DNA of 64,000 bases, taken from NCBI GenBank assembly GCA_963675745.2, contig CAXXWX010000015.1:320001-384000 (forward strand). The letters are read 5' to 3'. This DNA is from Phycisphaerae bacterium. Lineage in GTDB: Bacteria > Planctomycetota > Phycisphaerae > UBA1845 > Fen-1342. The notes below the pieces were generated by a model, which saw only the letters and a program-made list of their open reading frames with translations, did no database searches and had not been told where the DNA came from. Shown piece by piece: positions 30,224 to 37,601 of this stretch (the first letter of the stretch is position 1; the number at the start of each line of letters is the position of its first letter). The position numbers and the translations under genes are program-made.

Positions 30224-31828
30224 GTGGAGCCCCTGTACAACTCAATCAGGCTGAGCACGCTGTTGCCGGAGATCATCCTGGTGGTCGCCGGCTGCGCCGT
30301 GCTGCTCGTCTCTCAGGCCCAGCGCGACGCGTTGCGGCGTGCGGCGAACTGGGTCGCGCTCTTGGCGATTCTCGTCGCGGCGCTGCTGATCTGGGCCGCG
30401 CCATCGGTGGTCGGCAGCACCGGTATCACCACCGGCAGCGGCCTGGTCTATGACCCGTTGGCCGGCTATGTCCGCATCAGCACCCTGATCCTCGGTTTCC
30501 TCATCGCGCTGGTCAACTGGTCCCAGGCACGCGATTCGGAACGCGGCGAATTCCTCTCGATGATGCTGTTCTCGCTGGCCGGGCTCTTGCTGGTCGGAGC
30601 CGCCGACGATCTGGTTACGCTCTTCCTCGCGCTGGAGCTGGTGAGTATCCCCACCTACATCATGGTCGCCCTCAGCCGCACCAGACGCGTCGCGCTCGAG
30701 GCTGCGACCAAGTACTTCTATCTCGGCGCGCTCTCGGCCGCGATCATGGCGTACGGATTCACCTTTCTGTACGGCGTCTCGGGTACAACCGAGATTTCCG
30801 GCTCGATCGCGGCGGTGTCCGACGCCCTCACGATGCCCGGCACTTTGCCCCACGCGCTGGCGTCCCTGGGTCTGCTACTCGCGTTCGGCGGCCTGCTCTT
30901 CAAGATTGCCGCGGTGCCAATGCACTTTTACATCGCCGACGTTTACCAGGGCGCCGCAAGTTCGGTGGCGGGGCTGCTCGGATTTGTGCCCAAGCTCGCC
31001 GGGATCGTGGCGATTTTCCGATTGATGACCCTCGCCGAGTGGCAGACGCTCCACGGAGGACTGTTCTGGCTGCTGTGGATCGTGGCCGCCGTCACCATGA
31101 CCGTCGGCAACATGCTCGCGCTTCAGCAGACGAACATCAAACGCATGCTGGCGTATTCCGGCATCGCCCATTCGGGTTACATGCTCGTCGGGATTCTCGC
31201 CGGTCCGGTTGGTGCGCGTGGCGCGCTGCTGGGCGACGGTGCCGCCGCCGTGCTCTATTACGTGGTGATCTACGGCATTGCCAACCTGGGCGCATTCGCG
31301 GTGCTGGCCCTGTTGCGTGTTCGCGGCGGAGCCTGCGAGACACTTCGCGACGTTGCCGGGCTGTTGCGCCGCAACCCGGCGCTGGCTCTGCTGCTGGCCC
31401 TGGCGATGTTCACCTTGATGGGCCTGCCGCCCACGCCCGGCTTCTGGGGCAAGTTGAGCATCTTCGGCAGCGCTCTGGCCGCCGCCAAGACGGCCGGCGG
31501 CGCGTACGAAAGCTGGCTCATCGCCCTGGTTGTGATTGGCGTGCTGAACTCCGCGATGGCCGCCGCGTACTATCTGCGGGTCATCGCCGCTGTTCTGCTC
31601 TACGAAAACGAGGAGCCCGCCAGCGCCGTCTCGCGCGATGCGGTACAGATGGGCGCGCTGCTCTGCGGTTTGATGCTGTTGATTTTCACGTTCAGGCCGG
31701 CGGATCTGTTGAACCGCGGGCGTGATGCCACCTTCGCGCTGCGCAACAGCGTCGCCCCATCACAGAGCCGCGTTGACCACTCGGCCCCCGCAGTGGCAAT
31801 CATCGAGCCCGCCGACCCCTCGGAATAA
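30224..31828 (+). CDS. nuoN: NADH-quinone oxidoreductase subunit N
   Basis: LALELVSIP, EAATKYF, FKIAAVPMH and KRMLAYSGIAH. Confidence 0.96.
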   Translation: MEPLYNSIRLSTLLPEIILVVAGCAVLLVSQAQRDALRRAANWVALLAILVAALLIWAAPSVVGSTGITTGSGLVYDPLAGYVRISTLILGFLIALVNWSQARDSERGEFLSMMLFSLAGLLLVGAADDLVTLFLALELVSIPTYIMVALSRTRRVALEAATKYFYLGALSAAIMAYGFTFLYGVSGTTEISGSIAAVSDALTMPGTLPHALASLGLLLAFGGLLFKIAAVPMHFYIADVYQGAASSVAGLLGFVPKLAGIVAIFRLMTLAEWQTLHGGLFWLLWIVAAVTMTVGNMLALQQTNIKRMLAYSGIAHSGYMLVGILAGPVGARGALLGDGAAAVLYYVVIYGIANLGAFAVLALLRVRGGACETLRDVAGLLRRNPALALLLALAMFTLMGLPPTPGFWGKLSIFGSALAAAKTAGGAYESWLIALVVIGVLNSAMAAAYYLRVIAAVLLYENEEPASAVSRDAVQMGALLCGLMLLIFTFRPADLLNRGRDATFALRNSVAPSQSRVDHSAPAVAIIEPADPSE

Positions 31829-31846: not shown

Positions 31847-33053
<1,207 letters not shown>

Positions 33054-33067
<14 letters not shown>

Positions 33068-33740
33068 GGCCGAACTCCTCTTGCGCGGCGGCGAAGACCG
33101 TGTCGGCATCGCGCGCCGCGTCGATCACCACCACCGGTGACGGATATGCGTTCGGTAATTCCAGAAAACCCTGCCGCACACGGCGATGAAACTCCAGCGG
33201 CCGCCGTTCCATCGCGTCCGGCGCGCTACCTTCAAACAGTGGGATTTGACCGGGTGAGTGCTTGCGTTTTCGACGCCGGTTTTGCGCCGGGCCGCGTCCG
33301 GTCCGCTCCAACCCGACTTCGGGCGGCACGTCGAACACCAGCGTCAGATCTGGCCAGGTGCCCGCAACCGCCAGGCGACCGAGCTCGATCACTTCTTCGT
33401 ACGGAAAGCCCGCCGCCCCTTGATATGCATACGTCGCCGAGATGAACCGGTCGCACAGCACGACCTGGCCGGCGTCCAGCGCGGGCCGGATCTTCTCAGC
33501 GACCAACTGCGCGCGCGACGCCATAAACAGCAGCGTCTCACATCGCGCGCTCATCTTGGCCAGATCGAAGTCCAGCAAGACATGCCGAATTCGATCGCCT
33601 ATTTCAGTCCCGCCCGGGTCGCGCACACGCCGCAATGGTGTGCCGGACTTCTTGATCCACGCCGCCAAACGCTCGAGCTGCGTGCCTTTGCCCGATCCGT
33701 CAGGGCCGTCCACCACGATGAATTTCCCGGCTAGATTCAT
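33054..33740 (-). CDS. tmk: Thymidylate (dTMP) kinase
   Basis: P-loop DGPDGSGKGTQ, RDPGGT, CDRF...YQG and PDLT. Confidence 0.95.
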
Positions 33741-34553: not shown

Positions 34554-37500
34554 ATGACGCAACGCCAGCGACGTGCGAACCGTGCTGCCATCCTGGTGGG
34601 ACTGGCGGCAACGGTGCTTGTGCTCACCGCATACGTGCTCGGTGTGCTTGATTGGCTCGAGCTGCGCACCCTCGACTATCGCTTTCGCTGGGCCAATTCG
34701 ATCAAACAGTCCGGCGATATCGTCTGCATTGACATCGACGACGGGTCACTCGAGCTCGCCGGCCGCTGGCCCTGGCCGCGACATGAACAGGCCGCGCTAA
34801 TCGCGGTCCCGATCGAGCTGGGCGCCAAGGCAATCCTTGTCGATCTGACCTGGATCGAACCCCAGGCCGCGGCGCTTGACCTGCCGCGCTACACCGACCT
34901 GGACACTGACGTCCTCAACTATGCCCCAATCGAAGACGATGTCAGATTGCCCGACCTCGAGCTCCAAGCGGCCATCGCCAAGGGCGGCAACGTCTACCTG
35001 GGCTTCCTCTTCAAAGAGCACGACATTGTCCACAGCCCCCGTTTTGGCGGGTCCGGCGGCGCCGTGGCCGCCCTTGCCGATAAGCGGCCGGACGATGCCC
35101 GATCCCTGGCCGAGGCGCTCGATACGGCCCAAAGGACCGACCTGCTGAAGCGCGGCGTGCGCCCCGAGGACATCGCCGAGTCGCTGCCAGCCTTTGACTT
35201 GGCGCGCATGGTGATTGAGATCGAGGGCGAGTTGGAGATATCGCCGGCGGCTCTGGCGGCGCGCCTCAAACTCTCGTCAGACGATGTGGAGCGGCATTTC
35301 GAAGACTGCCGGCAATTGGTGCTGCGCCAGCAGATCGGCAAGCGCCTCGCCGATGAGCCGGAGTTGGCGACATTGTCCGTCGATGCCTTGTTCGGGCGGA
35401 TTTACGCCGGCTATTCCGACCGCCCGCTCGTAGATGACACGCCGCTCAAGGCCGCCGTTGCCGCCGCCCTCCAGGAAACGCTGGGGTACCTGGCAACGAC
35501 GCGCTCGCGATTGGCCGGCGCTGATGTGCTGCAACACGCCCCCGTTGATGTCGATCGCATTCTACCCGTGTACTTCTTGCACGCCCGCGCCGCCAAACGC
35601 TGTGGCACCACCGTGTTCGAGCCGGACGATGACGGCGTAACACGCCATCTGCCGCTGATGATTCGTCATGGCGACAACGTGTTGCCGCAACTCGCCTTCG
35701 GGTTGGCCTGCGATCTCGTCGGTCAGCGGCCCGTCGAGGTAATCCCCTCGCGCGGTGCGCGCCGCGCCAGCCACGTCGCCCTGGGCGCTGTGCGCATTCA
35801 GATCGACGAGCGCGGACGCGCGCTGGTGCCCTGGGTACCCCAGCCCGATTGGCAAAAGCAGTACACCGCCTCGGGCCCGGATGGATCGCGGGCTGACGAG
35901 ATGGGACGCGTGCCCGCCGATGCGTTGTGGGAGATTCACAACCTGCGCGCCCACATGACGCGAAACGCGCGCAACGCACGCCTGATGCGCGCTCAACTCT
36001 ACACGAGCAACCTGTTTGCGAAGGAAGCGCGTGCGACCTACGAAAAGGCCTACGTCGCCATCGAGCAACTCCGGCGCCGCAGCGAGCAAGCCCGCCTGAG
36101 CGCTCGTTTTGATAACGCCCGGATACTCCGCGAACAGATTGCCCGCGAATCCACAGCGCTCGCCGCGCTGGAGCGCAGTATGGCTGCGGCGGACACCGAC
36201 GACTGGGTGCGGGAGCAGATCACCGCCGTCGACAAGCAGACCGCCGCGATCAGCGTGATCAATGACGACCTGCAAAAGCGCGTCGATCAGTCACTCACAC
36301 GCCTGCGGCCGGCTTTCAAGGACCGCATCTGCGTCATCGGCTACACCGCATCCGCCCTGGCCGACATGACACCCATTCCCACGCACAAACGCGCCCCCGG
36401 CGTGCTGGCACACGCCAACCTGCTCAACGGCCTGCTCACCGGCCAGACGGTTTCGTGGGCTCCGCGCTGGGCGAATCTGATGCTGGCCGGGCTGCTGGGT
36501 TTGCTGGCCACATTGCTCAGCTATTCACGCCCGCCGCGCGACACGCTTCTGCTCATCGCGCTGGTGGCCTTCCTGTTCCTGGCGCTGGCGGGCTGGTGGG
36601 CGTTCTACCTGTGGCACTATTGGATCGCTCTCGTGCCGGCCATGACCGCCCTGGCGCTGAGCTACTTCGCGATCGCGACTTACCGCTACATCTTCGTCGA
36701 CATCGAACGACGCAAGCTATCCACGGCCCTCGGGCAGTACACCTCGCGCGAGATCGCCCAACAGGTGGCCGACGACACCGAGCTGTGCCGGCGAGCGGAG
36801 ATGCGCGAAGTCACCACAATGTTCACCGACCTCAAGGGCTTTACCACCATCTCCGAGCGAATCGGCGCCGAACGCACACAGCACGTGCTCAATCTCTGCC
36901 TGGGCAGATTCACCCAGGTAATGTTGCACCATGAGGGGATGGTCAACAAATTCCTCGGCGACGGCATTTTCGCCTTCTGGAACCCCGTGATCTATCCGCA
37001 AGCCGACCACGCTTTGCGGGCATCGCTGACCGCCGTTGATCTGCTCGCAGCGCTCGATGATCTCAAACGCGAGCAACGCGCCGCCGGCGGCGATGACGTC
37101 TTCGAAGAGCTGCTGATGCGCGTCGGCGTCGCCACCGGCAACGCCGTCGTCGGCCCCTGCGGTTCCGAGCAGAAGTTCGACTACACCTGCATCGGCGACT
37201 CGGTTAACGTCGCCGCCCGGCTCGAATCGGCCAACAAGTTCTACGGCACACAGATTCTCATCAACGACGCCACGCGCAACGTGCTCGAAGATGCGTTTGT
37301 CTGTCGCGACCTGGGCGCCGTGCAGGTAAAGGGCAAGCGTCAGGGTGTGCGCATCTATGAGCTCATCGGCGCCGTCGACGATGTGCCGCAGGCCGTGGTC
37401 GCCCACGCCGTCGAATTCGCCAAGGCCGTCGCCCACTTCCAGAATCGCCGGTGGGAGGCCGCCGCCGCCATCTTCGGCGTCTGCATCCAGCAGCGCCCGG

Positions 37501-37601
37501 ACGACCTGGCCGCCATGCGCTACGCCGAGCTATGCGCCAAATACCTCAACAATCCCCCCGACGAAGACTGGAACGGATCGATCGAGCTGATGGAGAAATA
37601 G
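34554..37601 (+). CDS. CHASE2-domain class III adenylate cyclase
   Basis: CIDIDD...GRWPWPR, DDDGVTR and PGVLAHA (CHASE2); three TM helices; FTDLKGFT, KFLGDG and YTCIGDSVNVAARLE. Confidence 0.93.
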   Translation: MTQRQRRANRAAILVGLAATVLVLTAYVLGVLDWLELRTLDYRFRWANSIKQSGDIVCIDIDDGSLELAGRWPWPRHEQAALIAVPIELGAKAILVDLTWIEPQAAALDLPRYTDLDTDVLNYAPIEDDVRLPDLELQAAIAKGGNVYLGFLFKEHDIVHSPRFGGSGGAVAALADKRPDDARSLAEALDTAQRTDLLKRGVRPEDIAESLPAFDLARMVIEIEGELEISPAALAARLKLSSDDVERHFEDCRQLVLRQQIGKRLADEPELATLSVDALFGRIYAGYSDRPLVDDTPLKAAVAAALQETLGYLATTRSRLAGADVLQHAPVDVDRILPVYFLHARAAKRCGTTVFEPDDDGVTRHLPLMIRHGDNVLPQLAFGLACDLVGQRPVEVIPSRGARRASHVALGAVRIQIDERGRALVPWVPQPDWQKQYTASGPDGSRADEMGRVPADALWEIHNLRAHMTRNARNARLMRAQLYTSNLFAKEARATYEKAYVAIEQLRRRSEQARLSARFDNARILREQIARESTALAALERSMAAADTDDWVREQITAVDKQTAAISVINDDLQKRVDQSLTRLRPAFKDRICVIGYTASALADMTPIPTHKRAPGVLAHANLLNGLLTGQTVSWAPRWANLMLAGLLGLLATLLSYSRPPRDTLLLIALVAFLFLALAGWWAFYLWHYWIALVPAMTALALSYFAIATYRYIFVDIERRKLSTALGQYTSREIAQQVADDTELCRRAEMREVTTMFTDLKGFTTISERIGAERTQHVLNLCLGRFTQVMLHHEGMVNKFLGDGIFAFWNPVIYPQADHALRASLTAVDLLAALDDLKREQRAAGGDDVFEELLMRVGVATGNAVVGPCGSEQKFDYTCIGDSVNVAARLESANKFYGTQILINDATRNVLEDAFVCRDLGAVQVKGKRQGVRIYELIGAVDDVPQAVVAHAVEFAKAVAHFQNRRWEAAAAIFGVCIQQRPDDLAAMRYAELCAKYLNNPPDEDWNGSIELMEK

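Follow-up and report, generated by a model that had tools for sequence, protein, structure and literature searches.

The window analysed here (the whole stretch of DNA, 64,000 nucleotides) encodes a thymidylate kinase (dTMP kinase, Tmk) that, judged from its sequence and those of its relatives, is probably a clamp-tethered enzyme, predicted to be held on the sliding clamp DnaN by a pentapeptide in its LID. The tmk gene (33054..33740, minus strand; 228 amino acids) matches TIGR00041 with a score of 135 bits (curated cut-off 83.25), and the catalytic core of its product is intact, with the P-loop GPDGSGKGT, the DRF motif and the LID residue Arg146. K18, R98 and R146 are invariant or nearly so among related sequences, so that the P-loop, DR motif and LID arginine of NMP kinases are all present. 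The predicted fold also matches solved Tmks, the best Foldseek match being Pseudomonas aeruginosa Tmk (4edh; target-normalised TM-score ~0.88). The gene product is an ordinary thymidylate kinase, predicted to be catalytically intact, and its closest named records come from Phycisphaerae and Planctomycetota MAGs. A scan for promoters and terminators returned nothing exceeding shuffled sequence; a CHASE2-adenylate/guanylate cyclase gene (34554-37601) lies upstream of tmk on the opposite strand.

The feature that sets this Tmk apart is an insertion of ~20 amino acids in the LID, located past the LID helix and ahead of the conserved D-x-x-E. It spans residues ~150–173 (33222..33293, minus strand; residues 150–173 read GPAQNRRRKRKHSPGQIPLFEGSA from 33293 to 33222), and alignment to P. 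aeruginosa Tmk places 24 family-profile positions (149–172) opposite only 4 residues (151–154) of the solved enzyme. Within it, the basic tract RRRKRKHSPG (33249..33278, minus strand), Phycisphaerae-specific in composition and charge, lies 5' of QIPLF (residues 165–169; 33234..33248, minus strand), a predicted β-clamp-binding motif of the consensus Q-φ-x-L-F that is followed directly by an acidic residue. Both the length of the insertion and the position of QIPLF had been given in the first-pass annotation, and the coordinates and the alignment bear them out exactly.

A tmk match was found in 41 of 41 genomes searched, and Qxx[LMIF][FL] is present in 28 of the 30 best related loci; the exceptions are L023, from which the segment has been lost, and L030, which reads EQLLLIP. 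Together with 27 new loci, 40 hand-picked across families and 80 others, these formed a pool of 177 loci with 158 distinct LIDs (119 long, 14 medium and 25 short). The motif occurs in 92 of the 119 long LIDs, 2 of the 14 medium and none of the 25 short ones, proportions that are inflated and do not serve as census figures, most of the pooled loci having been picked by similarity to an insert-containing query. When each of the 119 long loops was shuffled (2000 shuffles), the mean was 1.7 and the maximum 7 occurrences, compared with the 92 observed; the genome-wide background of Qxx[LM]F is 0.0032 per 25 amino acids (185 matches in 3757 proteins of a rough gene set). Narrower definitions retain 82 of the 119 long Phycisphaerae LIDs (Qxx[LM]F) or 31 (the strict Q-φ-x-[L/M]-[F/L]), position 2 often being G, T, Q or P, and the commonest form, QLSMF, accounts for 7 of 92.

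Alignment columns lead to the same picture. Over 118 rows unselected for the motif, Q is found in 97, L or M in 106 and F in 101, while the commonest residue at either position 2 or position 3 reaches at most 19, and the motif is kept across Tmks 39–69% identical to that of the window amid near-random neighbouring positions. The alignment of orthologs that the first-pass annotation had proposed as a check thus came out in its favour, with Q, L/M and F kept while positions 2–3 and the flanks vary. To judge from these columns, the LID motif is under selection. Its losses nonetheless recur, even inside a genus (L023), and many lineages manage with a LID of 26 residues. Second tmk copies in two genomes (L064 in G022:C14 and L059 in G024:C78) group with other families and reflect contamination or transfer. 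A different LID insert with PLF, VLF, SLF or SMF and no Q is found in family f16 (L079–L081) and the look-alikes P0029, P0072 and P0090; it has an acidic tail and resembles the Q-less delta motif.

The clamp-binding motif has been defined as a pentamer, Q-φ-x-[L/M]-[F/L], with an additional hexamer form; positions 2 and 3 are tolerant, the Q is helpful yet dispensable and the flanks are mostly acidic, according to the available text of a review (PMC11139829), and positions 1, 4 and 5 are described as the most important in a preprint (10.64898/2026.05.27.728225). QIPLF fits this definition exactly, and the Tmk columns reproduce the published pattern, with positions 1, 4 and 5 conserved, 2 and 3 free and an acidic C-terminal side (mean −1.0). 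A match of this kind is no guarantee of binding: QALRF of RecB conforms to the motif yet failed to bind the clamp, as stated in the available portion of 10.1101/2025.08.20.671105. Clamp motifs listed in the review include QADMF in DnaE, QLGLF in Pol II, QLNLF in Pol V, QLVLGL in Pol IV and QLSLF in PolC (PMC11139829, in part). Proteins of the known client types carry such motifs here too (DnaE GQLSMF, DinB QLPLF, MutS QLRLF, ImuB QGDLF), and the commonest Tmk form, QLSMF, is identical to the clamp motif of DnaE in the host genome. The genome scan comprised 20 candidates picked by eye among the 110 listed of 374 matches, which were ranked with a disorder scale. The main dnaE (G000:C23:225254-228336) matches TIGR00594 in four pieces in different frames with one TGA, possibly through assembly indels.

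The cognate clamp itself was assessed by mapping its peptide pocket via P. aeruginosa chain 6ams. The host dnaN (G000:C6:65335-66456) adjoins a gene recognized by eye as dnaA. Its product has 11 identical residues among the 17 pocket positions mapped, 3 conservatively replaced and 3 changed (H175R, R246D and R365S), V344 being unmapped; the pocket is largely intact. Across DnaN of the order (L179–L208), R246 is replaced by D or E in 24 of 29 rows and R365 by S in 27 of 29, so that the rim of the pocket is less basic. Three genomes (G003, G006 and G010) harbor extra, distant dnaN-like copies. A complex prediction for DnaN with Tmk residues 141–180 gave ipSAE values of 0.18 and 0.14 (mark 0.32, no controls) and counts neither way.

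The motif also occurs in the Tmk LID loop outside the class. A phylum-wide sample gave matches in 93 of 121 genomes. Its 29 best new loci include 22 that lie outside the class, and in 4 of those, from other Planctomycetota classes, the LID insert is shorter and contains QISLF, QVGLF, QAGLF or QGFLF. A LID profile search against 1.84 billion representatives returned further, unrelated motif-bearing Tmks among the 150 of 2735 matches listed. In the Anaerolineae-like set around P0046, the motif is present in 66 of 73 long LIDs versus none of 47 shorter ones (64 of the motifs being strict, with forms such as QLPLF, QLALF and QLSLF), and the Dehalococcoidia-like set around P0084 comprises 14 pentamers and 8 hexamers among 27 long LIDs and a motif in 1 of 93 shorter ones; these counts are alignment-based, their rows are 90%-identity clusters that are non-independent, and five hexamer rows are near-identical. 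The hexamers, QLSLGL, QLRLPL and QLQLPL, can be compared with QLVLGL of Pol IV. Cluster records supplied a taxon for 1 of 20 proteins, and the labels Chloroflexota and Pseudomonadota were taken from named neighbours and from Atlas clusters: the named neighbours of P0046 are Anaerolineae and its nearest Atlas cluster is Chloroflexota, and those of P0084 are Dehalococcoidia/Chloroflexota. Three sequences with QIAFDF, QLAFSF and QMTFSF (P0081, P0114 and P0076) may represent a proteobacterial case, weakly labelled. Tandem motifs are seen in the LIDs of P0037 and P0038, in which the hexamer QLDLPL is followed by QLNLF or QLLLF.

Trees of the Tmk core minus the LID, which come from a quick search, are unrooted and have several weak branches, place motif-bearing groups interspersed among short-LID groups. 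A single motif clade was rejected by the AU test (p 0.010 with 43 rows; p 3.7e-6 with 45 rows), the groups having been drawn with the tree in view and with likely losses included, and a count on an unrooted tree leaves gains and losses indistinguishable. Because flanks, spacers and motif types differ between lineages, these data favour several gains of the LID motif.

Recurrence bears differently on the basic tract, which the first-pass annotation had read as a tether to DNA. The region 5' of the motif is indeed basic in Phycisphaerae, with a mean net charge of +2.1, but none of the 66 Anaerolineae-like loops reaches +2 or more, and their mean is −1.8. A universal DNA tether is rejected on these figures; the tract is lineage-specific, and DNA tethering is therefore no general part of the system. 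Its tolerance in Phycisphaerae Tmks could be explained by the loss of R246 and R365 from DnaN.

The neighbouring gene, holB (DNA polymerase III delta'; 31847..33067, minus strand, start inferred from alignment), overlaps the 3' end of tmk, and a HolB match is present in 29 of the 30 best tmk loci; the tmk–holB gene order is common. holB converges with the nuo operon, whose end is at 31828. The first-pass annotation had noted a clamp-type motif in HolB as well; the gene overlap is real, as is QGSLF, in the loop of the zinc module (32870..32884, minus strand). It is, however, a genus-level feature: a clamp-type motif is found in just 4 of 89 distinct loops of the HolB zinc module, of which 3 belong to genus g1. 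All three g1 loci examined have it (the loci noted are the window, L014, L023 and L164), and L023 retains it in HolB having lost that of Tmk. On this count, the idea that HolB generally shares the motif with its partner was rejected. Related HolB loops end in GGLF, EALF or PSLF.

Among other proteins of nucleotide metabolism, NrdR, the repressor of RNR genes, has a conserved C-terminal tail of the form GQxx[LM]F (L239, G000:C6:107693-108142, minus strand; relatives L259–L288). The tail is present in 28 of 28 parsed loci of this order (40 of 41 genomes matched, 30 loci fetched, 28 parsed), and constitutes a predicted clamp motif on an RNR-gene repressor. No clamp motif was found in RNR, NDK, ThyX, dUTPase or Gmk of the host genome. 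With these five nucleotide enzymes lacking it, an entire motif-tethered dNTP pathway is not in view. A link between the Tmk motif and ThyX was likewise rejected (ThyX in 11 of 24 motif-bearing versus 24 of 51 other genomes); ThyA is found in 6 of 24 and 12 of 51, respectively, by a hand tally in which several genomes have neither ThyX nor ThyA. Clamp-type sequences further occur at the C termini of RuvB (QPGLFD; L240, G000:C1:266383-267414) and XseA (QLDLFE; L241, G000:C15:92714-94279), in two DDE_Tnp_1_4 transposases (QLGLF and QLALF in L245 and L249, the L249 type being present in 4 copies), and in a serine recombinase (QPGLF) and a tyrosine recombinase (QMPLF) (L247 and L258).

Taken together, conservation, recurrence, the use of both motif forms and the DnaN pocket uphold the clamp-motif part of the earlier interpretation, and the parts that concern the basic tract, HolB and the delivery of dTTP precursors come out weaker. 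QIPLF probably docks in the peptide pocket of DnaN as polymerase motifs do; the Q would occupy subsite II and the LF subsite I, with weak, micromolar affinity. Tmk is a dimer, which would add avidity to such single-site docking. The enzyme would thereby be placed on clamps at the fork, on lagging-strand clamps behind it, or where DNA is under repair. Should Tmk bind, the chances are about even, by analogy with human TMPK at sites of damage, that the benefit would be a local conversion of dTMP to dTDP that favours dTTP over dUTP at sites of DNA synthesis; delivery of dTTP precursors as such was inferred, the product of Tmk being dTDP and the five enzymes named above being devoid of the motif. 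Given where the motif is placed, in the LID, docking on the clamp may influence catalysis as well. On a broader and decidedly tentative reading, Tmk has been wired to the clamp via its catalytic LID several times independently, in lineages from two or more phyla, and dTDP would be made, and perhaps its synthesis switched on, at clamp-loaded DNA; NrdR of the order would dock there too, and DnaN would act as a hub for precursor supply and sensing.

Docking has to be weighed against a structural or autoregulatory role: the L/M–F pair would pack against the core of Tmk or its dimer interface and thereby give order to the long LID, and its resemblance to a clamp motif would be incidental. In the AlphaFold models the core is confident and the motif forms a coil within the weakest block, but the pLDDT of residues 161–170 rises from 42 with a 30-row alignment to 67 with 118 rows; moreover, 83 of 92 loops have a spacer of 5 residues separating the motif F from the Asp of the core, and the positions after the F are conserved. 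The rise in pLDDT and the fixed spacer are compatible with packing on Tmk itself, as is the retention of the hydrophobic pair in 20 of the 27 long LIDs (of 119) that lack the Q-motif. Packing does not predict the alternation with a hexapeptide form, however, and Qxx[LM]F is found with different flanks and spacers on cores that form no single clade. In addition, 97 of 118 rows retain Q165, and strong covariation of Q165, L168 and F169 with the core was not detected (z at most 3.5, with low power). We consider this role improbable.

Still less probable is a nearly neutral gain, whereby lineages rich in clamp motifs pick up tolerated weak ones in loops and tails, as HolB apparently has. The rarity of the HolB motif, the recurrent losses in Tmk and the terminal motifs on many host proteins (RuvB, XseA, NrdR, transposases) are in keeping with such drift, which nevertheless sits poorly with retention of the motif at 39–69% Tmk identity amid near-random neighbours, and with long inserts that are nearly always motif-bearing in an unrelated clade (the 66 of 73 Anaerolineae-like loops). 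The remaining alternative accepts docking and differs in purpose rather than in binding: the DnaN-bound motif would be exposed or hidden according to the nucleotide state of the LID, and Tmk would compete for clamps or be switched by them; with NrdR also clamp-bound, dNTP status would be coupled to replication. The LID of NMP kinases moves with substrate, and the motif sits in this mobile element. The presence of the NrdR tail in every parsed locus, set beside its absence from RNR, NDK, ThyX, dUTPase and Gmk, points in the same direction, and localisation need not imply a metabolic role, as the accessible part of PMC11381932 indicates. With the NrdR evidence covering one order and nucleotide-dependent exposure being conjecture, we regard a signalling purpose as unlikely, though less so than a structural one. 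Clamp tethering of a thymidylate kinase accordingly remains our preferred account of the window Tmk.

In its core fold, P-loop, DRF motif and position upstream of holB, this Tmk is like other bacterial dTMP kinases (TIGR00041, PF02223; P. aeruginosa 4edh, E. coli 4tmk), and it differs from the P. aeruginosa enzyme in its LID, which is ~20 amino acids longer and carries the motif. It resembles known clamp clients in using pentamer and hexamer forms, in the location of the motif in a loop, in the acidic C-terminal flank and in the tolerance of positions 2 and 3. Those clients, as far as the sources consulted in part describe them (polymerases, loader, MutL, Hda, ligase and RecB), act on DNA, whereas Tmk is an enzyme of nucleotide biosynthesis whose motif is known from sequence. 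If the tether is real, clamp clients would extend from DNA-processing proteins to metabolism. No description of a clamp-motif-bearing Tmk was found in the literature searched; the original motif survey (Dalrymple 2001), outside that literature, could list Tmk. The word 'thymidylate' is absent from the main text of the clamp review (PMC11139829). The motif is thus of a known kind, and its host, a precursor enzyme that has gained it repeatedly in one loop, appears to be new; the Tmk LID illustrates how a short motif can arise repeatedly at one site.

The closest conceptual parallel is the hypothesis of a replication hyperstructure with dNTP channelling (E. coli NrdB foci, the T4 dNTP synthetase complex), which also places precursor enzymes at the replisome. 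Synthesis of dNTPs at the bacterial fork has been debated for decades, with conflicting reports on RNR localisation: an RNR–DnaN interaction has been reported, as has an evenly spread NrdB (both cited in PMC2826317, in the text available). That hypothesis, as set out there, names no defined tether, whereas here a discrete tether of five residues is predicted, on Tmk, an essential precursor enzyme, and with RNR lacking it; were DnaN to act as a hub, this would be a motif-level form of the long-debated hyperstructure. As the tether could be removed by two substitutions off the active site, and as short-LID relatives provide natural controls, the question of channelling becomes directly testable. 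A parallel for the enzyme itself is human TMPK, which is recruited with TIP60–RNR to sites of DNA damage and locally increases the dTTP/dUTP ratio (PMC11381932, in part). Recruitment of this eukaryotic enzyme goes via TIP60 and ATM instead of a sliding-clamp motif.
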